Assembly (NCBI GenBank): GCA_900546715.1
Contig: UREA01000004.1
Location: forward strand, 7,395-71,394
Reading direction: 5' to 3'
DNA length: 64,000 bases
Source: an uncultured Mycoplasmatota bacterium
GTDB taxonomy: Bacteria; Bacillota_I; Bacilli_A; RF39; UBA660
Position 1 is the first letter of the stretch; each line of letters opens with the position of its first letter. The translations under genes and the position numbers were made by a program. Positions 4,449 to 29,699 of this stretch are shown in pieces. The notes beneath the pieces were generated by a model. That model was not told the DNA's origin, made no database searches, and worked only from the letters and a program-made list of their open reading frames with translations.

Positions 4449-5870
4449 TTACAATACATTTTTTATTTTTTCTTTAGCACTATTTACACTTTCAGGATAA
4501 GGCATCATGACATATAACTTTTGATTCTTATAACTATATGTATAATCAAAAGCATTTGAGCCATCTAAAGATATAGTTTCAATATCCCATGAATACATAC
4601 CATCAATTTGCCATTTTATTAAATCAGTAATTTCCTTATTAGTAATATTTGTTAAAAATTCTCCACTTAAAGCATTAAGTAAATTATTATAATTAGTTAT
4701 AATACCAGCACTTAACACTTTATTAATAATTGCTGTTAGTACTAATTGTTGATTTTCTACCCTAACTCTATCTCCTTCACTAAAGGCTTGTCTTTCTCTT
4801 GCAAAAGATAATGCTTCTGCTCCATTTAAATTATTATTTCCTTTACTAAAGTGATATCCGTCGATACTAGTAAAATCATAATTAGAATTAACAGTAATAC
4901 CACCAAGTTCATCTACAATATCAACTAAAGTTGTAAAATTAACTTTAACATAATAATTTATATCGATATCTAGTAAATCTTCTAAAGCTTTAGTTGTTAC
5001 ATCTATTCCATAAATACCTGTATGCGTAAGTTTATCATAATCCCCATAATCACTTAAATAAACATAATAATCTCTTGGAATACTTGTAAGTAATATCTTA
5101 TTTTCTTTAGGATTAACAGAAACAATCATATTAACATCACTTCTTGATACTCTAGTAATAGATCCATAAGAATCAATACCTGTAATTAATATGTTATATG
5201 AATCACTTGTTACATCAATATCTTTATTAATATTTTTAATTTCTGTTTCAATACTATAATTTTCAATTATTCTCAAATTATCCATTAATTCATTATTAGT
5301 CTCTTTAAGCATAGTAATCTGCGCATCCTCAAGTATTATAGCAGCAACTTCTTCATCTATTAAATTATCAACCAATGAATTTATATCATCTAAAATTACA
5401 CTTTCAAAATCAATATTATTATCAATTTTTTCAATTGCATTATTTAATCCCTTATGTACATTATTATCTAAATGCCCTATAGCCTCTCCATTTAAATCTC
5501 CAAGAGTTTCATAATCACTTTCATCTAACACCAATACATTATATACTTCTTCTTTATAAGTATTAAAACCAAATTGCTTTAAAAAATCTATTGTATTAAG
5601 TTCATAAGTAATACCAAATACCATAATTATAATGAGTATAATTGATAATATTACTCCAATAACATTTCTTATTTTACCACTACCCAGCAATAACTTAATT
5701 ACTACTAAATCAATAATTAAAACAAGTACTACTAATACTATAAAATAATCTATTGGTAACACATTAATAAAATAAACTAACACTAAAATTAACACACTTA
5801 CTATAAGAAGAAATATACTTAAATATTTCATAAAACTCATTTTACTTTTATTATTTTTCTTCTTAGCCAT
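4449..5870 (-). CDS. LytR-CpsA-Psr (LCP) family cell-envelope phosphotransferase
   Basis: N-terminal TM, then ILITGIDS...RSDVNMIVSVNPKENKILLTSIPRDYYV, the LCP signature. Confidence 0.8.
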   Translation of the reverse strand: MAKKKNNKSKMSFMKYLSIFLLIVSVLILVLVYFINVLPIDYFIVLVVLVLIIDLVVIKLLLGSGKIRNVIGVILSIILIIIMVFGITYELNTIDFLKQFGFNTYKEEVYNVLVLDESDYETLGDLNGEAIGHLDNNVHKGLNNAIEKIDNNIDFESVILDDINSLVDNLIDEEVAAIILEDAQITMLKETNNELMDNLRIIENYSIETEIKNINKDIDVTSDSYNILITGIDSYGSITRVSRSDVNMIVSVNPKENKILLTSIPRDYYVYLSDYGDYDKLTHTGIYGIDVTTKALEDLLDIDINYYVKVNFTTLVDIVDELGGITVNSNYDFTSIDGYHFSKGNNNLNGAEALSFARERQAFSEGDRVRVENQQLVLTAIINKVLSAGIITNYNNLLNALSGEFLTNITNKEITDLIKWQIDGMYSWDIETISLDGSNAFDYTYSYKNQKLYVMMPYPESVNSAKEKIKNVL

Positions 5871-5932: not shown

Positions 5933-6244
5933 TTAGTTTTCATCACTTAATACTATTTGTTCTTTTTCTTCTTTTACTTCTGTTGTTTCATATAATCTTT
6001 TTCTAATATCGTGTATTATTTGAATAATTTCTCCGACTGCATAAATAAATACAAATGAAATTACAATTCCTATTACCGCTAAAACAATTGTTAAAAAAGG
6101 TATTTCTACAGTGCCATTAAAAGTAAAAATAACAATGAATAATATAAACATACCAACCACTAAATCAACCCACGCTATACATTTAATTGCATATGCCACC
6201 ATATTTGTTTCCCTAATAATTTTTTCATTTTCCACTTTAACCAA
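5933..6244 (-). CDS. Small hypothetical membrane protein
   Basis: 103 aa with two hydrophobic helices. Sits in a coding-dense minus-strand context. Confidence 0.45.
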   Translation of the reverse strand: MVKVENEKIIRETNMVAYAIKCIAWVDLVVGMFILFIVIFTFNGTVEIPFLTIVLAVIGIVISFVFIYAVGEIIQIIHDIRKRLYETTEVKEEKEQIVLSDEN

Positions 6245-6344
6245 CTCCTTTTATATTACAAAAAAAGTATATCATATCAAACAATTATTGTCTATATGAT
6301 ATACTTTATATTTAATGTAATATGAAGTCCATTCTTTTGTTGAC

Positions 6345-7586
6345 TTATACTATAATTCTGTAAGGATTATCAATTGAGCCATCACCAGAGGCATAAGCTA
6401 CATCAGAGTTTAAGTAAAAAACAGGTCTGACTGACATCCCAGCTAAAGCATCACCAACTTGTCCTAATATACCTGGCCCGTTTGCATAAAAAACCCTTTT
6501 ATTATCACTCAAATAACGAGTAATCGTCCACTCTGGAATCTCTAAAAATAACCAACTACTATTATTATTTAAGCTACAGTTAGTCCAATATTCCGGTAAT
6601 GTAGAATAACCATAATCGCTTACATACATTAAGCCTATTTTTGCATTGTATTTTATGTCTTGTGAATACATACCAACTTCTTCATTATATGTTGATAAAG
6701 TACTCAATAAATAAGCATCATATGTTATAATGCCACCTATACTCCACCATTTAGATAAAATAATATTTTGCCAATTGTTTTCAAAATTTGATAAAAAAAC
6801 ATTATTTAATTAGTAATTTAAATCAGATTTTTCCCAATCATTTGAACCATTATTTCCAGGACTCGGAGCAGCTAAAATTCCACTTAATTGAACAATATCA
6901 TTTTTTTTGATATTGTTGCTCACACTAGAAACATTATCAAAATCTACAATATCAGAATCCCAACTGGAGTCACCTATACTTGCATTTTTAATTAATTTAA
7001 TTTCACCATCAAAAACTCCTATCATTCTATATAAATTATCAACAGGACACGGATTTTCATCACTGCCAAAACAAACATAATTATTTGGATTTGCTCCTGC
7101 ATATCTATATGAATTATCTCCTGCCTCTTGATCTACATTAGTGTATGTTCCTTGACCATCATGATAATAAAGTCCATTAACTCCATCTTCTACATAAACA
7201 TTATTTATAATATAATCAGCTAAATATACTATATCTGGTTCTTTATCAAAGTATACATAACATTTTTCTGTATTATTAGTTTTTAAATTAACAGCATCCA
7301 GTTCTTCATTCCAAGATAATTCCCCACCATTTTCACAACTTGATAAATTACCATTAAAAACATATCCTTCCCCAGGCCAAGTACTTGAAGTAGATTTCTC
7401 ATATGTTCCAGAACCAGCTTCTGTTTCTAACATGAATGTTAGAAAACCACCAACAGAGTTTTCTTTTTTATCCTCAATATTACTTGTATACATACTATTA
7501 TCATCTTCACTTACATAAAAACAAATACTTATACCTAGTATTATTACAAATATACCACTTACTCCAATCAATATCTTTTTTTTCAT
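6345..7586 (-). pseudogene. Secreted/surface protein interrupted by one in-frame TAA (6810-6812); the two halves are 6810..7586 and 6345..6707
   Basis: Both ORFs share one frame. The only stop between them is a single TAA. The read-through translation (..SDLNY*LNNVFLSNFENNWQNIILSKWW..) looks protein-like. The N-terminus has a signal/TM and the C-terminus ends in a GDGSIDNPY-type motif. Confidence 0.5.
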
Positions 7587-8261: not shown

Positions 8262-8350
8262 ATTAATAGGTTTAAAAGAGTTCTAGTCTCTGCGTCTAAC
8301 GCATAAATCCCTAGACTAACGCCCGAAACGAGCAGAGATACAAACTCTTT
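8262..8350. other. Candidate structured RNA element in a 640-bp ORF-free convergent intergenic region
   Basis: Nested inverted repeats: outer aaaagagtt/aactctttt and inner tctctgc/gcagaga. The inner region holds a CTAACGC direct repeat and tagtct/agacta pairing. A T-tract lies at the plus-strand 3' end. Confidence 0.25.
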
Positions 8351-22483: not shown

Positions 22484-22930
22484 ATGAATAATCAAAATTC
22501 AAACAGCAATGGAAATTGCATTAATGAAATATTATGTGTAATTTTAGTACTACAAGAAAATGCATGTCCAGATAACTGTTTACAAACTTGTGATAGACCA
22601 GTACTCGGCGGAGGAACTAATTGTATAGTATGTAACACTAGACCAGTAATGCTTTATACTTGCTGCGGAAATGGCGTTCCATGGAGTATGCCAATAACTA
22701 AAGATTCAACAATAAGTTGTGCAGGATCTGATATTAGTACTACTTGCTCAAATGTCTTTAGAGTAGAAAAGATTGAAGGAAATTGTTGTACATTTAGAGT
22801 TCTTGCTGAAAATACAGATACTACTAGTTTATTTCCATATGTAGCTACTAATGTCTTCTTCACAATGGATTGTAGTTGTTTGTGCAGTATAAGATGTCTA
22901 TCTGATACATTTGTAGATTGTGTTTGTTAA
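22484..22930 (+). CDS. Cysteine-rich spore coat/exosporium protein, CotY/CotZ/ExsY family
   Basis: 148 aa with 23 Cys. VFRVEKIEGNCCTFRVL and C-terminal CSCLCSIRCL resemble CotZ FFRVERVHGSCATLSLL / CFCAINCL. Confidence 0.65.
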   Translation: MNNQNSNSNGNCINEILCVILVLQENACPDNCLQTCDRPVLGGGTNCIVCNTRPVMLYTCCGNGVPWSMPITKDSTISCAGSDISTTCSNVFRVEKIEGNCCTFRVLAENTDTTSLFPYVATNVFFTMDCSCLCSIRCLSDTFVDCVC

Positions 22931-23064: not shown

Positions 23065-24630
23065 TTATTTTGCTTCTTCTTGAACTCTAGTTTCTCTAAT
23101 TACTGTTATTTTAATAGTACCAGGATATTGCATTTCACTCTCAATTTGTTCTTTGATATCCCGAGCCATTTTATAACTTTTAGCATCATCAACTTCTTCA
23201 GGTTTGACAATAACCCTAAGTTCACGACCAGCTTGCATTGCAAATGTTTTTTCAACACCTTCATAAGAGTTACCTATTTCTTCAAGTTGTTCTAATCTCT
23301 TAATGTAATTTTCTAAAGTATCATTTCTAGCACCAGGTCTTGCCGCAGAAAGTGTATCTGCAACAGCTACTAAAACGGCAATTGTTGTTTTAGGTTCTGT
23401 ATCACCATGATGCGATGCAATAGCATCAAGCACTACATCAGGTTCATGATGTTTTTTAGCAAAATCTAATCCCACTTCAACATGTGAGCCTTCAACTTCA
23501 AAATCAATAGCTTTACCAATATCATGAAGTAAACCAGCTCTTTTAGCAAGAGTTATATTTTCTCCAAGTTCGGCTGCCATTAAACCAGTAAGGTTAGCAA
23601 CTTCAATAGAATGTTGTAAAGCATTTTGACCATAGCTTGATCTAAAGTTAAGCTTACCAACTAAAGTAACCAATTCTGGATCCATTTTAGCAATACCTAA
23701 ATCATTAATAGTTTGATTACCTATTTGAATAATTCTCGCATTAACATCTTTTACGGTCTTGTCATAAATTTCTTCAATTCTACCAGGATGAATTCTACCA
23801 TCCTTAATTAAAGATTCAATAGTAAGTTTTGCTATTTCTCTTCTTAACGGATCAAATGAAGAAATTGCTATTGCTTCAGGTGTATCATCAATTATTAAAT
23901 CAACACCAGTAACTGATTCAATTGTTCTAATATTTCTTCCTTCGCGTCCGATGAGTCTACCTTTCATATCATCATTAGGTAGGCTTATAGTACTAACTGT
24001 TTGAAGTCCCACAACATCATCAGAGTATCTCTCCATACTACTAATAATCATTTGTTTAGCTATTTCATGAGCTTCTAACTTAGCTTTAGCCTCAGCATCT
24101 TTAATGTAATTAGTAATTTCAAGTTCCATATCTTGTTCTACTCTCTCCATTATAGCTGCCTTAGCTTTTTCTTTGCTATACTTAGCAATACTTTCAAGTT
24201 TTGCTACTTCTTCTTTAAGTAGCGTATCCATTTTTTCCTCTTTTTCTTGTAAATTTTTTTGTTTAGCTAATAAATCATTTTCTTTGTCTTGTAATAAATT
24301 ATCTCTATTTTGTAACATTTCTTCTCTTTTATCTAAGTTGTTTTCTCTAGTTAATAATCTATCTTCACTTTGTAAAAGTTCGGCTTTTTTAGCCTTTATT
24401 TCCGCATCAGTTTCTTGTTTTAAACGAAAACTTTCTTGCTTTAATTCTGATAAAGCATCTCTTTTACTTTTTTCCGCTTCTAACTTAGCGGCTTCAATTA
24501 ATTTATTAGCTTTACTTACTGCTCGTGATGCTCTAATTGTAAAAACAATCCATATAATAACACCACCCAGCAAAATTCCAACAATAAGAGTCAAAATGGC
24601 AATCAAAACATTATCCATTTTTTCCTCCAA
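23065..24630 (-). CDS. rny: Ribonuclease Y
   Basis: N-terminal TM, long coiled coil, KH domain (GREGRNIRTIESVTGV) and HD domain (HSIEVANL...LLHDIGKA); 521 aa. Confidence 0.95.
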   Translation of the reverse strand: MEEKMDNVLIAILTLIVGILLGGVIIWIVFTIRASRAVSKANKLIEAAKLEAEKSKRDALSELKQESFRLKQETDAEIKAKKAELLQSEDRLLTRENNLDKREEMLQNRDNLLQDKENDLLAKQKNLQEKEEKMDTLLKEEVAKLESIAKYSKEKAKAAIMERVEQDMELEITNYIKDAEAKAKLEAHEIAKQMIISSMERYSDDVVGLQTVSTISLPNDDMKGRLIGREGRNIRTIESVTGVDLIIDDTPEAIAISSFDPLRREIAKLTIESLIKDGRIHPGRIEEIYDKTVKDVNARIIQIGNQTINDLGIAKMDPELVTLVGKLNFRSSYGQNALQHSIEVANLTGLMAAELGENITLAKRAGLLHDIGKAIDFEVEGSHVEVGLDFAKKHHEPDVVLDAIASHHGDTEPKTTIAVLVAVADTLSAARPGARNDTLENYIKRLEQLEEIGNSYEGVEKTFAMQAGRELRVIVKPEEVDDAKSYKMARDIKEQIESEMQYPGTIKITVIRETRVQEEAK

Positions 24631-24748
24631 CTTTCTATAGAATATATATAATTTATTGTTAAATATATTTATATCTACAATTTAATTATAAAATTAATTC
24701 CCAAAATAATCAAGTAGTTTTTACAAATATGAAAAAAAGCTAGGTATT

Positions 24749-25171
24749 CTAGCTATTTAATTCTATTATTTCTTCTTTAGTCATATAAACTATTCGCTCT
24801 TCATTTATAATATTATTATTTTGATAATCATGATATTCTTTTAACAAGTCATTAAGTTTTTTTGAAGATAATGTATCCTTAGTTCTTCTGAATTTTGACA
24901 ACATTGTACAATTTTCTATAGTTAATTTTGTATTTAATTGAGCATAACTATCTTCATATAAAACAGTTTCTTTTGGATTTTCTGAATTAATAAAATAGTT
25001 ATATTTATGATACAAATTGTGTAATTTTCCGGCTGTTTTATCAATTGCTATTATTTCAATATAATTATCTTTAATATCCGCAATTAACATTGGATGTTCA
25101 ATACTAGCAACTTGATCTATTTGATATCTCACTTTCAACCACAATATTTGCCCCACTTTTAAATCATTCAT
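24749..25171 (-). CDS. Putative toxin partner of the Panacea-domain protein (uncharacterized 140-aa protein)
   Basis: Translationally coupled (ATGA overlap) to the upstream Panacea gene. No recognizable domain; the N-terminus has a weak PemK/SH3-like pattern VGQILWLKV...HPMLIADIKDNYIEII. Confidence 0.4.
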   Translation of the reverse strand: MNDLKVGQILWLKVRYQIDQVASIEHPMLIADIKDNYIEIIAIDKTAGKLHNLYHKYNYFINSENPKETVLYEDSYAQLNTKLTIENCTMLSKFRRTKDTLSSKKLNDLLKEYHDYQNNNIINEERIVYMTKEEIIELNS

Positions 25172-25650
25172 AATTTTAATGCTTCTATTAATCCTTTATA
25201 TCTTTTTTTGTATTCAGCAATGTTGTCCTCAATATTCATTATAGGTGCATTATATGTATTATTGCTTAATTTCTGCCATGTTGGATCTTCATGAGTAATT
25301 TCAATTAATTCATCAAATGTAGCATTCTCTAAAGATATATATATCTTATCTAAAAATTGCTTGTCGGAATCATTTATGTTAACCATACTATTTTGATTAA
25401 TCATTAACCCATATGATTTTACAATATCTTCAATTACTGGACCATTATCATATGCTTTAAAATCATCCTTAAATAATCTTTTATTATATAATGCCAAATA
25501 TACAACTTGAGCTAAAAATAAATATTTATTAATTCTTATATTACCTTCATATGATTTTCTACCATTATAAACAACTACATTTTTGTTGAACAATTTTCGC
25601 TTTGAGTCTTTAGATAAAAAATACATAGCCACATCTTTAGCACTCAACAT
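25168..25650 (-). CDS. Panacea-domain (DUF4065, SocA/GepA-like) protein, putative antitoxin
   Basis: ..NIRINKYLFLAQVVYLALYNKRLF...FKAYDNGPVIEDIV matches the Panacea signature (KLxKLLYxAQ ... GPV). GAGGTGA RBS 7 nt upstream of the start. Confidence 0.6.
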   Translation of the reverse strand: MLSAKDVAMYFLSKDSKRKLFNKNVVVYNGRKSYEGNIRINKYLFLAQVVYLALYNKRLFKDDFKAYDNGPVIEDIVKSYGLMINQNSMVNINDSDKQFLDKIYISLENATFDELIEITHEDPTWQKLSNNTYNAPIMNIEDNIAEYKKRYKGLIEALKL

Positions 25651-25671
25651 AATATATCACCTCGCACTAAT

Positions 25672-25700
25672 ATAATATAATATTTAATGATTTTTTGCAA
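25672..25700 (-). promoter_or_regulatory. Putative sigma-A-type promoter for the Panacea pair
   Basis: Minus strand TTGCAA-N17-TATTAT, about 20 nt upstream of the RBS/ATG. Confidence 0.3.
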
Positions 25701-25900
25701 CATAATTGCTTAACTAATTTACTGAATTAATCATTAAATAAAAAAACTATTTCTATTTACAACACACATCAAGAAAAGATTTTCTATATTCAGTTGTTTT
25801 AAAATTTTCAATTTTAAAATTAACTAACATAAATATCCCCTCATATATAATATATACTGAAAGCAGCAGAAAACCAACAAATTGCGTTTTTTTCGTAAAT

Positions 25901-27226
25901 TTATTGATTTTCAGCAAGATTTATTCTTTGTGTTTTTTTAAGTAAAGTTTTTATCTTACTATACCCTATATATAATCCAATTGCAATAATAATAAATCTT
26001 ATTGGAAATAAAGTAATTGCATATCTCTCATAAGCAAAAGCCACACAATATAATATTATTTGTAATATATAAAATATCATTAAAAAAGCATATTCTAATA
26101 AATTAGTTCTATATATTAAAATTAAAATTGATGATATTAAAAATAATACTAAATCAATAATTCTAAATGCTAAATTAACTTTAATATCTATATTAAATAC
26201 TTCTTCCCAATAAAAACTAGAATATAACATTATTTTAGGCTTAAAAATTAAATAAGATTTTATAAAAGAAACTTTATCGGCTTTCCACCATTCACTAATT
26301 CTATATTTGGCTTTCAATTTATCATACTCTAAAGAATAATAAACTTTATATTTATCTCTAGGGGAATCTTCACTTAAATAATATTGCATTTCTTTAGGCA
26401 TTGAATCATTCAACACTTCATAATTTAGTTCTTCATCTAATGGATAACCACTACCTTGATAGGTTCCTAATAATAAAGGATTACCAGATCCATAAGTAAG
26501 TGGAATAAACATATCAAAAGTTTTATAATTTCGGTATATCCATGGAATTAAACTAATAATTACAACTGATATTCCAAGAATTGTTTTTTTTAATAATTCC
26601 TTAATATTATATTTTTGTATCAACAAACATATTAATAAAGCAATAGGAAATACTATTATATTTGGTCTAATATATATAGCTATAATAAAATAGAGTAACA
26701 TTAAATAAAAGTCTTTATTACGATGATTCCTTAAAAATAATAAAGAATAATATATTAATAACAACATAAATAAAATAAATGGTGTTTCTGTAAGTATTAA
26801 ATTATTCATCCATATATAGTCGGGAGCAATAAAAAATAAACTAACAATACTTGCAATATATTTATTAGAAAATAATAACGCAATTTTATAAAAAATAATT
26901 ACAGTAACAATAAATAATATTGCATAAAATATTTTTAACGCAAGTATTAATGTTGCACCAATACCAAACAGAAAACAAAACATAGCAATAATAATAGGTA
27001 AACCTGGCATTATTTGAGCTGATGTTACCCCATGCATGGTAATTTTCCCCTCTTCATAAAGGGTAATACCGCTGTTAATATAACTTAAATCATCACTATT
27101 GATTGTATAATCATAACCTAAATCAATAATTGATAATACTTTTATCACTATCAACAAAAGTATTATCAAAGAAAACAACCAATGTGATTTTACAATTTTT
27201 AATACTTTCATAGTTCCTACAATCAT
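25901..27226 (-). CDS. Polytopic membrane glycosyltransferase, GT-C fold (PMT/ArnT-like, family 39/83-like)
   Basis: 441 aa, ~11 TM helices with loop motifs resembling ArnT/PMT-type GT-C enzymes. First gene of the cell-wall polysaccharide locus. Confidence 0.5.
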   Translation of the reverse strand: MIVGTMKVLKIVKSHWLFSLIILLLIVIKVLSIIDLGYDYTINSDDLSYINSGITLYEEGKITMHGVTSAQIMPGLPIIIAMFCFLFGIGATLILALKIFYAILFIVTVIIFYKIALLFSNKYIASIVSLFFIAPDYIWMNNLILTETPFILFMLLLIYYSLLFLRNHRNKDFYLMLLYFIIAIYIRPNIIVFPIALLICLLIQKYNIKELLKKTILGISVVIISLIPWIYRNYKTFDMFIPLTYGSGNPLLLGTYQGSGYPLDEELNYEVLNDSMPKEMQYYLSEDSPRDKYKVYYSLEYDKLKAKYRISEWWKADKVSFIKSYLIFKPKIMLYSSFYWEEVFNIDIKVNLAFRIIDLVLFLISSILILIYRTNLLEYAFLMIFYILQIILYCVAFAYERYAITLFPIRFIIIAIGLYIGYSKIKTLLKKTQRINLAENQ

Positions 27227-27229
27227 CCT

Positions 27230-29260
27230 TTATTTCTTTATCTTAAACATAAATTTAACATTACTATTCCAAAATCTTTTTAATCTCTTAGGTTCAGTAA
27301 TTATCCTATAAAACCATTCTAAATTAAGTTTAATAAATATCTTTGGTGCTCGCATTTTAGCTCCACTTAAAACATCAAAAGAGCCACCTACTCCAATATA
27401 TATACCTTTTTTAGCTTTATCAAAATACTTATAAATTAATTTCTCTTGATTAGGTATACCTAAAGCTACCATACATATATCAGGATTTAATTTAATTATA
27501 TCTTCCATTATTTTATCTTTATCATCAACATAACCATTACTAAATCCAAGTAACTTAATATTTTTATATTCTTTTTTTATTTTTTCCACTAACGCTTGAA
27601 TAACCTCTTCTTTAGCTCCAAATAAATACATTGAATATTTATTTGTATTAGCAACATTCAACAAGTGTTCTGTAATATCAATACCTGTAATTCTTTCAGG
27701 TATTGATATATTTATTTTTCTTGCAACTTTTACAACTGCAATACCATCAGGAACAAAACTATAATTACCATCTAAAATATTTTTTAACTCTTTATCTTTT
27801 TCACTCATCATTAATGTTTCCGGATTAACAGTAATTATAAATCTTTTATTTTTATTTTTTAAATCCTTATCTAATTCATCAAAGTATTCATTTTTACTTT
27901 TACTATATAGTTTTTTTAAATATTCTTGCATAATTTCACCGTATTTATATCTACTATTATTGTTAATTAAAAACATAAATAATATACCTAAATATATACT
28001 ACAAGAAGGATAACCGATTATATGTCCCGACAAAAAAGATAACATTAAAAGAAACAATATGGTAAAACTAGCAATAATATTATCTATAGTTTTAAAACAA
28101 TATTTTAAAACTAATTTAATCATAAGAACTAAAGGAATCAACAAAACTAATACACCTAAAATACCATAATGAAATAATATATCTAAAAAATCTATCTCAG
28201 CATACAAAATAATATTACAATTATTAATTTGATTATTGTTAGTAAACCCGATTCCAAAAAATTTATTTTCTAAAGTTGAATCTTTATATATATTATATAA
28301 AGTATATGCTTTATTTTCCCTACCATTCAATAAACCATGAATGACTTTTTCTACTATTTCATTATTTACAACACTAGAAAAGCGATAATATTTCCCACAA
28401 GATTCATTTTGTAAATTTTTATTTATATTATCATTCTTTTTTACTTCTTTTATAGGATTATCGTTTCCAGTTACATTATTAGAAACATTATTCGTAGTTG
28501 GAGCAACAAAGGTTAATAAAATAAGTAAACAAAACACTATTAATGAAGAATAACACATAAATTTGTTTTTTCTATTTTTAACAAAATAAATAATTGTAAT
28601 AAATAACATTAATATTATTATACCAAACCAACTAACTTTAGTGCCTATCATAAAAATACTAAATATTATAGGTATAAGTAATAAAATTAATTTTCTATTA
28701 CTATTTTCTAGTTTTATAAAGAAGCTTGAAAATAGCATTAAAATAATAGCTCCAATTTCATTACCAGAGTAAAACCAACCTATGGTACCTATAGAATTTA
28801 ATCTTAAAGGATATGTAGGAAATCCTGTATTAGTAATTATTGGAATAATTAATAATACAGTATAAATTAGTAAAGTATAAAATAAAATATTATTATAGAA
28901 ATCCTTTTTAAATTTGAAATCTTCAGATATACATAAAAATGCCAATATAATAAATCCTGTAAATAAGAATTTAAATAAGCCAACTAACTCCGCAAATAAA
29001 TTAGATTCTGTAAAAATATATGTTTTGGTTAAAAAGAAACCTATAACATATATAAAACATATAACCCAATATATTATATTTAACTTACGATACTTATTTT
29101 TACTAAAAAATAAAATATAAAAAATTAAAAATATACATAATAAAGCTTTATAAATAATGCCTAAAGATATTGGCATAAAGGAATATCTAGCATTTAAAGC
29201 AGTAATTAAATCAACAAACGGTAATAAAAGTAATACAATTAAACTAATTTTTTCCTTCAT
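27230..29260 (-). CDS. Fusion: polytopic O-antigen-polymerase/ligase-like membrane domain + TagA/WecG (GT26) N-acetylmannosaminyltransferase domain
   Basis: The C-terminal ~230 aa (..VPDGIAVVKVARKINISIPERITGIDI...GVGGSFDVLSGAKMRAPKIFIKLNLEWFYRI..) is the WecB/TagA/CpsF fold. The N-terminal ~440 aa has about 12 TM helices and is paralogous to the N-terminus of 36050..38467. Start set at MKEK (29260). Confidence 0.7.
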   Translation of the reverse strand: MKEKISLIVLLLLPFVDLITALNARYSFMPISLGIIYKALLCIFLIFYILFFSKNKYRKLNIIYWVICFIYVIGFFLTKTYIFTESNLFAELVGLFKFLFTGFIILAFLCISEDFKFKKDFYNNILFYTLLIYTVLLIIPIITNTGFPTYPLRLNSIGTIGWFYSGNEIGAIILMLFSSFFIKLENSNRKLILLLIPIIFSIFMIGTKVSWFGIIILMLFITIIYFVKNRKNKFMCYSSLIVFCLLILLTFVAPTTNNVSNNVTGNDNPIKEVKKNDNINKNLQNESCGKYYRFSSVVNNEIVEKVIHGLLNGRENKAYTLYNIYKDSTLENKFFGIGFTNNNQINNCNIILYAEIDFLDILFHYGILGVLVLLIPLVLMIKLVLKYCFKTIDNIIASFTILFLLMLSFLSGHIIGYPSCSIYLGILFMFLINNNSRYKYGEIMQEYLKKLYSKSKNEYFDELDKDLKNKNKRFIITVNPETLMMSEKDKELKNILDGNYSFVPDGIAVVKVARKINISIPERITGIDITEHLLNVANTNKYSMYLFGAKEEVIQALVEKIKKEYKNIKLLGFSNGYVDDKDKIMEDIIKLNPDICMVALGIPNQEKLIYKYFDKAKKGIYIGVGGSFDVLSGAKMRAPKIFIKLNLEWFYRIITEPKRLKRFWNSNVKFMFKIKK

Positions 29261-29699
29261 TATAAACACCTGGTATTGGTATTTGATCAACACCATTTAT
29301 TGGCTCTTGCAGTTTTAAATCTTCTTTTATTTTTGTTGTCGATATTCCTTCAGTTCTATCTAAATATACTACTTCACAGTAATCTTGTAAATAATTAAAT
29401 TTATCACTTCCGGCCCAATCTGATCCCATAACAACTATATCAACTTCATATTTTTCCACATCATTTATTTTTTGTTCCCAATTTTCCTCTGGAATTACTA
29501 AATCAACATATCTTATTGCTTCTAGCATCTTTTTCCTTGTTTCATAATTATGATATGCTTTTTTTCCTTTTATTTCATTAAATTCATCAGTTGATAATGC
29601 TACTATTAAATAATCTCCCAAAGCTTTTGCTCTTTGTAATAATCTAATATGTCCATAATGTAATAAATCAAATGTCCCATATGTTAATATTCTCTTCAT
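29244..29699 (-). CDS. tagD: Glycerol-3-phosphate cytidylyltransferase
   Basis: MKRILTYGTFDLLHYGHIRLLQRAK (HxGH motif), 151 aa. Confidence 0.9.
   Translation of the reverse strand: MKRILTYGTFDLLHYGHIRLLQRAKALGDYLIVALSTDEFNEIKGKKAYHNYETRKKMLEAIRYVDLVIPEENWEQKINDVEKYEVDIVVMGSDWAGSDKFNYLQDYCEVVYLDRTEGISTTKIKEDLKLQEPINGVDQIPIPGVYNEGKN

Follow-up and report, generated by a model that had tools for sequence, protein, structure and literature searches.

The antitoxin domain Panacea was called hyperpromiscuous by Kurata et al. 2022 (PMC8832971), and the pairs that it forms with toxins (PanA, the antitoxin, and PanT, the toxin) are the closest described systems to the locus presented here. In that work, the PanT clusters T5, T6 and T17 are of the MazF/PemK type, with a domain-less PanA and the genes in antitoxin-then-toxin order; T5 and T6 have HHpred matches to EndoA/MazF (99.5% for T5), and T17 matches PemK_toxin in CDD. 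PanA:MazF-like pairs are validated translation inhibitors (PMC8832971): for PanT of Pseudomonas moraviensis and of Bifidobacterium ruminantium, inhibition of protein synthesis and its neutralisation by PanA have been demonstrated, and two members validated in this way lack any CDD match. A standalone Panacea protein has also been shown to neutralise its toxin by direct contact (PMC10440598). Other points of reference are the MazF/EndoA/PemK/Kid toxins (PF02452), the type VI system SocAB of Caulobacter crescentus and the type III toxins CptN, ToxN and AbiQ.

The window analysed here, a stretch of 64,000 nucleotides from an uncultured Mycoplasmatota bacterium, contains two adjacent minus-strand genes, panA and panT, found where the initial annotation had placed them (Table 1). 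Together they probably form a PanAT-class cassette, a chromosomal toxin-antitoxin system of type II with a divergent MazF/PemK-like toxin and a standalone Panacea antitoxin. Like the Kurata PanAT pairs, this one has a standalone ("noNTD") Panacea gene upstream and the toxin gene downstream, with genes that overlap or are closely spaced, and, like the PanT proteins, the toxin has no or weak matches in domain databases and resembles EndoA/PemK/MazF by structure or profile. The kind of system is thus already known, since Panacea:MazF/PemK-like pairs were reported and validated by Kurata et al. (PMC8832971), and the earlier proposal of a new PanT toxin is, given the predicted MazF/PemK fold as well, not supported as stated. 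Unlike the Kurata pairs, the family found in the window has no match to any curated family and, in the genome collection searched, turned up only in MAGs of uncultured gut Bacillota, and its main branch has His and Asp at the Arg and Thr positions as well as a C-terminal extension. The name Onthocola, the genus of the nearest database entry (see below), is not present in the part of Dataset S1 of PMC8832971 consulted. With respect to MazF/EndoA/PemK/Kid, the partner here is Panacea and not MazE/PemI, identity of the toxin to these endoribonucleases (e.g. S. aureus MazF 4mzm and B. subtilis EndoA 4mdx) amounts to 8-17%, and its score stays below the Pfam gathering cut-off. The toxin is therefore an unannotated sequence family inside a known superfamily, with a known type of partner, and its novelty is the sequence family unrecognised by curated libraries, the altered catalytic positions and the C-terminal extension, the Kurata clusters being given as accession numbers and compared by description, not by sequence.

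Table 1. Features of the panA-panT cassette and its downstream boundary (coordinates are those of the window).
Feature	Position	Strand	Basis or remark
panA, 160-aa standalone Panacea-domain protein, predicted antitoxin	25168..25650	-	Pfam and phrog matches
panT, 140-aa predicted MazF/PemK-fold toxin	24749..25171	-	start overlaps panA stop
Shine-Dalgarno GAGGTG	25658..25663	-	7 nt before the PanA ATG; direct reading of the sequence
Promoter-like site of the pair: -35 TTGCAA (25700..25695), 17-nt spacer, -10 TATTAT (25677..25672)	25672..25700	-	consensus scan
Terminator-like hairpin AGCTAG-loop-CTAGCT (24754..24738), then TTTTTTT; overlaps the panT stop codon	24728..24754	-	
Promoter-like site of rny, TTGATT-17-TATAAT, outside the cassette (boundary marker)	24685..24713	-	in the conserved rny leader
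rny (domains RNase_Y_N, KH and HD), downstream of the pair	23065..24630/24618	-	

A Panacea signature had been read in the 160-aa protein from the start, and the proposed search with the DUF4065 profile bore it out: SocA_Panacea (PF13274) is matched along profile positions 2-113 of 113 (E 1.1e-13, 52.5 bits, gathering score 25.7), and phrog_1281 is matched at E 3.6e-20. No extra N-terminal HTH, PAD1 or zinc-binding domain was found, i.e., the protein is Panacea alone. It is identical to HIU11318.1, a "SocA family protein" of Ca. Onthocola stercorigallinarum, by which the source organism, an uncultured member of the Bacilli from the gut, is recognised as this species or one very closely related to it. 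Neither PanA nor the panT product has a match among the PADLOC-DB v2 families.

The operon layout, noted before as typical of toxin-antitoxin systems, was confirmed from the sequence: the panA stop and panT start overlap as ATGA, which reads TCAT on the plus strand (25168-25171). A strong Shine-Dalgarno of its own is not seen before panT on direct reading, so its translation probably depends on coupling, and the ATGA overlap would be the point where the two genes are coupled. Both genes would be transcribed from their own promoter. That the pair carries its own promoter and ribosome-binding site had been claimed earlier; the ribosome-binding site is clear (Table 1), while promoter-like sites, in the consensus scan, are no commoner here than in shuffled sequence. 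However, homology to the window ends at this very place. In strains that have other genes upstream (GT2, PMT_2, or an insertion of Abi_alpha and AAA_21), it stops at 25701-25706 (L007, L009, L010, L012 and L073) or at 25695, just inside the -35 hexamer (L016 and L017), and the promoter-like stretch must therefore travel with the cassette. This boundary is better evidence for a self-contained unit than the promoter scan. At the other end, the hairpin after panT has a conserved stem and a variable loop in relatives, and empty-site strains have this same hairpin directly 3' of the WecG gene. Homology boundary and hairpin together delimit a unit of ~970 bp that consists of promoter, panA, panT and terminator. 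Beyond it, the rny leader is nearly invariant across five relatives. The pair lies 5' of rny and in the same direction, and not on its 3' flank as had been assumed. The initial annotation had the flanking genes right: those upstream code for a PMT_2-type glycosyltransferase, an O-antigen ligase/WecG fusion, a cytidylyltransferase and an ABC ATPase. The GC content of the cassette is not set apart from that of this neighbouring glycan locus. Compared with relatives, the toxin has a dN/dS of 0.07-0.11 and PanA one of 0.11-0.14; both are under purifying selection and, with values of about 0.1, both ORFs are real genes.

The association between the two genes is obligate. All the toxin-encoding loci examined (59/59) have a Panacea homologue immediately upstream on the same strand, mostly with the 4-nt overlap, and P0138 and P0253, two of the more divergent representatives (P0253 being one of the weakest matches), likewise have a Panacea gene immediately upstream. 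The conserved two-gene neighbourhood that marks a PanAT pair is thus found in distant members and at unrelated sites too. In other gut Bacillota lineages, the cassette occupies chromosomal positions that have nothing in common: a region resembling a defence island, where GmrSD_N, PLDc_2, DUF1810 and part of an integrase are encoded, the space between rpoD and serS, that between a two-component system and a DHH phosphoesterase, and a position next to a Dam-type methylase.

We analysed variation within the species using contigs that carry an identical CotZ-like neighbour protein; an exact look-up of the window RNase Y sequence gave no match, nor did a DNA pattern taken from the rny 5' end in JGI metagenomes. 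Among the matches listed for the CotZ-like protein, the pair is present in six places. Three strains (L067, L070 and L071) have an empty site, in which the segment equivalent to window positions 24765..27233 is missing, which answers the check for absence from close relatives that the initial annotation had suggested. The pair is accessory, as expected from the isolated insertion next to rny envisaged there, but it is not a clean single insertion. As the indel that separates it from the empty-site strains also takes in the PMT_2 gene, the pair is best described as lying where a recombining, hypervariable glycan locus borders on rny. The cassette is an accessory element of Ca. Onthocola stercorigallinarum at this edge of the cell-wall glycan genes. 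One further allele (L073) has lost exactly window positions 24756..25171, i.e., the toxin ORF alone, leaving a 161-aa Panacea gene, and this toxin-only deletion is seen on 10 contigs.

In other species, the toxin gene has often decayed, as a pseudogene or by loss of its start codon. It carries a nonsense mutation in L029 and is a pseudogene with frameshifts or multiple stops in L054, L058 and L059, and its start codon has been lost twice independently, in L032/L033/L041 and in L049, as indicated by the different junction sequences. The Panacea gene is kept in every locus with a decayed toxin and is full-length in all of them except L058. None of the loci examined has an intact toxin beside a broken Panacea gene. 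This one-sided loss is the expected pattern for a downstream gene that does harm when its partner is absent. In L058, the PanA ORF is shortened, and both genes may be decaying there.

The 140-aa protein is annotated in GenBank as "hypothetical protein." It has no match in Pfam, NCBIfam or PADLOC, and the only one found is to phrog_13386 (function unknown, E 8.5e-8). Its family comprises 498 clusters when grouped at 90% identity and 138 when grouped at 50%, and all the members in the genome collection searched come from MAGs of gut Bacillota. An exhaustive profile search of 1.84 billion representatives recovered 138 proteins at E values up to 0.001 and gave no bridge from the family to any named one; searches of the PDB with the sequence and with the family profile gave nothing meaningful. 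An AlphaFold2 model built with 32 homologues (mean pLDDT, 77; pTM, 0.76) is a small beta-barrel followed by helices, and in three independent structure libraries MazF/Kid/PemK were top-ranked. Against the PDB, Foldseek gave S. aureus MazF and B. subtilis MazF in the lead (probability 1.00, TM 0.54-0.65), and against viral models, phage proteins named "Endoribonuclease" and "PemK-like." CcdB and ToxN-type toxins were also among the structural neighbours. The model has an SH3-like barrel and C-terminal helix that superpose on solved structures of the CcdB/MazF superfamily. Judging from this predicted fold, the protein is a highly divergent member of that superfamily, with a MazF/PemK-like architecture. 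It had been called unclassifiable, which is right for Pfam, NCBIfam and PADLOC but not for the predicted fold, and the faint PemK/SH3-like pattern that had been perceived at its N terminus turned out to be a real signal, as the structure searches lead to the MazF/PemK fold.

The link at the sequence level is weak but consistent. PemK_toxin is the most recurrent Pfam match below threshold, seen in 5 of 55 diverse members scanned singly (best E 2.7e-4), with one member spanning positions 2-103 of the 109 in the profile. P0137 scores 15.2 bits, none of the members scanned reaches the gathering score of PF02452 (23.1 bits), and the window protein has no match to it. With hhalign, the family profile aligned collinearly along 102 columns to a five-sequence MazF profile, although this is a marginal result (E 0.015, low probability). 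Of the sequences in that profile, EndoA was checked against the PDB, and the profile does recover MazF/Kid/PemK structures. Against single MazF sequences, only short segments aligned (E 0.44 and 0.044).

The catalysis of MazF has been shown to depend on Arg25 and Thr48, both essential, with only conservative Lys and Ser variants noted (PMC7354611). In the hhalign placement, H26-P27 of the window protein corresponds to R25-P26 in B. subtilis MazF, D44 to T48, and D74-S75...I85-E86 to D72-S73...I83-D84. The spacing from G7 to H26-P27 is 19 residues, equal to that from G6 to R25-P26 in B. subtilis MazF. Neither the catalytic Arg (R25 in B. subtilis MazF, R29 in that of E. coli) nor the Thr/Ser (T48 and T52, respectively) is kept in the window protein, which has His26/Asp44, or in most of the family. 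In the alignment of 55 members, 49 have His at the Arg25-equivalent position, 5 have Arg and 1 has Leu; at that equivalent to Thr48, 42 have Asp and 7 have Ser. The five with Arg at 26 (P0166, P0244, P0253, P0255 and P0257) all combine it with Ser at 44. The canonical pair is thus kept by the most divergent branch, with His/Asp in the bulk of the family, and the Arg/Ser of these basal members suggests an RNase ancestry. With His26/Asp44 at essential positions, RNase activity is not simply transferable from MazF. It is rated as probable rather than established, since the placement of the residues comes from an alignment and from a model with low-confidence loops. The loops concerned (residues 47-54 and 62-74, pLDDT <50) are the ones that line the substrate/antitoxin groove in MazF. 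By analogy with the validated MazF-like PanT proteins (PMC8832971), the free toxin would most probably be a sequence-specific endoribonuclease that arrests translation, and PanA, as other standalone PanA proteins do, would bind it directly and hold it inactive.

Other explanations differ in how much of this they change. A toxin with the same fold and the same partner might not be a MazF-type RNase, and could act as a CcdB-like gyrase poison, on another class of RNA through the His/Asp or a ToxN-like Ser/Lys site, or by binding and blocking its target. What raises this possibility is that both canonical catalytic residues are replaced and that the structural neighbours include CcdB and ToxN-type toxins. 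Histidine is, for its part, common as a general acid or base in RNases. The best matches in all three structure libraries are MazF RNases and not CcdB, the D-S...I-[DE] motif, which in MazF belongs to the substrate-binding strand, is conserved, and the basal members with Arg/Ser point to RNases as ancestors, so we consider this unlikely. Still less probable is a benign two-gene operon, in which neither the Panacea ("phage-associated") protein nor its partner, a small protein with an SH3-like barrel, would be toxic. In PMC8832971, a number of predicted PanT candidates, including MazF-annotated ones, were "not toxic" in E. coli, and ~1,000 Panacea proteins of that set lacked a toxin partner. A harmless barrel protein fits badly with the strict pairing at every locus examined, with the loss of the partner gene on one side only, PanA being always retained, and with a predicted fold that is a toxin fold. 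The Panacea protein might instead serve, as in the type VI SocAB system, as a ClpXP adaptor through which the toxin is degraded and not sequestered. Both antitoxins have the same Pfam domain, SocA_Panacea, which is named after SocA, and the NCBI name is "SocA family protein." However, PanA is far below the cut-off of the NCBIfam SocA_antitoxin equivalog NF047745 (25.9 bits against 190, aligned at residues 37-79 only, i.e., 43 residues), the toxin has a MazF-like fold with no similarity to SocB detected, nothing points to a ClpXP adaptor, and those standalone PanA proteins that have been validated do form a complex with the toxin (PMC8832971, PMC10440598). We regard a SocAB-like mechanism as very improbable. 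A type III system, with a ToxN/AbiQ/CptN-like toxin and a repetitive antitoxin RNA, has a negligible probability: the antitoxin here is a protein, and the space upstream of the toxin is filled by its conserved gene, which is under selection. TRF gave three short AT-rich low-copy repeats and no array of tandem repeats, either upstream of the toxin gene or close to it, no RNA repeat antitoxin was found, and there was no Rfam match.

A different matter is what the cassette would be for. It could be mainly an abortive-infection module for phage defence, with PanA as a sensor that releases the toxin upon infection, an interpretation that is compatible with a type II PanAT pair. In another lineage, the pair is located in the defence-island-like region mentioned above, and in L008 and L013 a cassette of Abi_alpha and AAA_21 is inserted ~150 bp upstream of panA. 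In the window, the pair has a hypervariable surface-glycan locus as its neighbour, both proteins have matches in PHROG families, and a sensor role for Panacea is favoured by the authors of PMC10440598. Against this, PADLOC gave no match, a narrow alignment of the toxin family found no relatives among IMG/VR viral contigs, tblastn with two family members found nothing in INPHARED phages or PLSDB plasmids, the pair stands among ordinary housekeeping genes in several lineages, and there is no known phage trigger. A main role in phage defence is thus possible, if doubtful. We are more sceptical, although somewhat less than in the case of the non-RNase toxin, about a bolder proposal for the main branch, i.e., that a MazF-fold toxin with a rebuilt His26/Asp44 active site and a C-terminal extension may have a mechanism or target undescribed for MazF-like toxins and perhaps, with a bare Panacea sensor, form an abortive-infection module beside a phage-receptor (cell-wall glycan) locus.

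Read as a PanAT pair with a divergent MazF/PemK-like toxin, the locus leaves the general picture of Panacea systems unchanged and adds another MazF-like branch to the toxins paired with Panacea. A family that is common in uncultured gut Bacillota, and was unannotated, is thereby assigned a fold and a likely role. The filled site, the empty site, the toxin-only deletion and the independent losses of the start codon are unusually clean evidence, at the population level, of the asymmetry between toxin and antitoxin in organisms that are unculturable. The substitution of His/Asp for the MazF catalytic pair, with Arg/Ser in the basal branch, poses a concrete and testable question about the evolution of the toxin fold. 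Finally, the window protein is 25-30 residues longer than the MazF/EndoA/PemK/Kid toxins. Its C-terminal extension of ~30 aa, conserved in the family and absent from canonical MazF, contains a strand (127-130) and a helix (132-139) in the model, and R126, M130 and N139 are invariant among close relatives.

The gene pair upstream of rny, coding for a Panacea-domain predicted antitoxin (panA) and a predicted toxin of the MazF/PemK fold (panT), is not fixed even within the species. In three strains (L067, L070 and L071), the site is empty: toxin, Panacea and PMT_2 genes are all missing, and rny is directly preceded by the terminator hairpin and a stand-alone WecG gene of 235 aa. Another strain of the species (L073) has precisely lost the toxin ORF alone and retains the Panacea gene with an altered C-terminus (161 aa, ending ...EALEFS), a variant recorded on 10 contigs. 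Decay of the toxin gene is also found in other species that carry the pair. In four of their loci (L029, L054, L058 and L059) the toxin gene is a pseudogene with nonsense mutations or frameshifts, and in another four (L032, L033, L041 and L049) its start codon was lost on two independent occasions. All eight loci still have the Panacea gene, in shortened form in L058.

Features of the pair and its neighborhood in the window and in other assemblies
Feature	Sequence	Position	Strand	Remarks
Empty site	L067, L070, L071	around 8270-8290		window 24765..27233 absent
Toxin-less Panacea allele	L073	8264-8749		counterpart of window 24756..25171 missing
Decayed or start-less toxin genes	L029, L054, L058, L059, L032, L033, L041	around 5980-6450 in each		
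Start-less toxin gene	L049	about 5075-5550		
AAA_21 + Abi_alpha cassette	L008; L013	3374-5408; 3405-5359		insertion point about window 25800
Hydrophobic 54-aa ORF, TTG start	window	25753..25917	minus	between PMT_2 gene and panA
O-antigen-ligase + WecG fusion, one 688-aa protein	window	27230..29296	minus	
Cysteine-rich CotZ-like spore-coat protein	window	22484..22930	+	between LemA/DUF2207 genes and rny
Two candidate rny starts	window	24618..24630	minus	TTG (521 aa) vs ATG at 24618 (517 aa)

The glycan locus adjoining rny is hypervariable at the strain level. Among the other strains of the species compared (L065-L074), WecG is found alone, with 235-239 aa, or as part of a 1045-aa fusion of ligase, GT4 and WecG. 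The spacer upstream of panA appears to be a small hot spot for accessory or defense genes; in some strains, a cassette coding for an AAA_21 ATPase (406 aa) and an Abi_alpha protein (256 aa) is inserted ca. 150 bp upstream of panA. This insertion lands inside the short hydrophobic ORF of the window, which matched no family and may not be a real gene.

In the assembly collection, 595 indexed blocks contain a protein of exactly the same sequence as the CotZ-like one of the window, which makes this a very widespread species among sequenced gut samples. Some contigs with this Bacillota-type pair (L018, L022, L034 and L042) were binned as Sphaerochaetaceae or Muribaculaceae, which probably reflects binning contamination rather than horizontal transfer. 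As for rny itself, the mechanical ORF call starts at the TTG, but the conserved GGAGG Shine-Dalgarno motif and the gene calls of relatives point to the ATG as the start.
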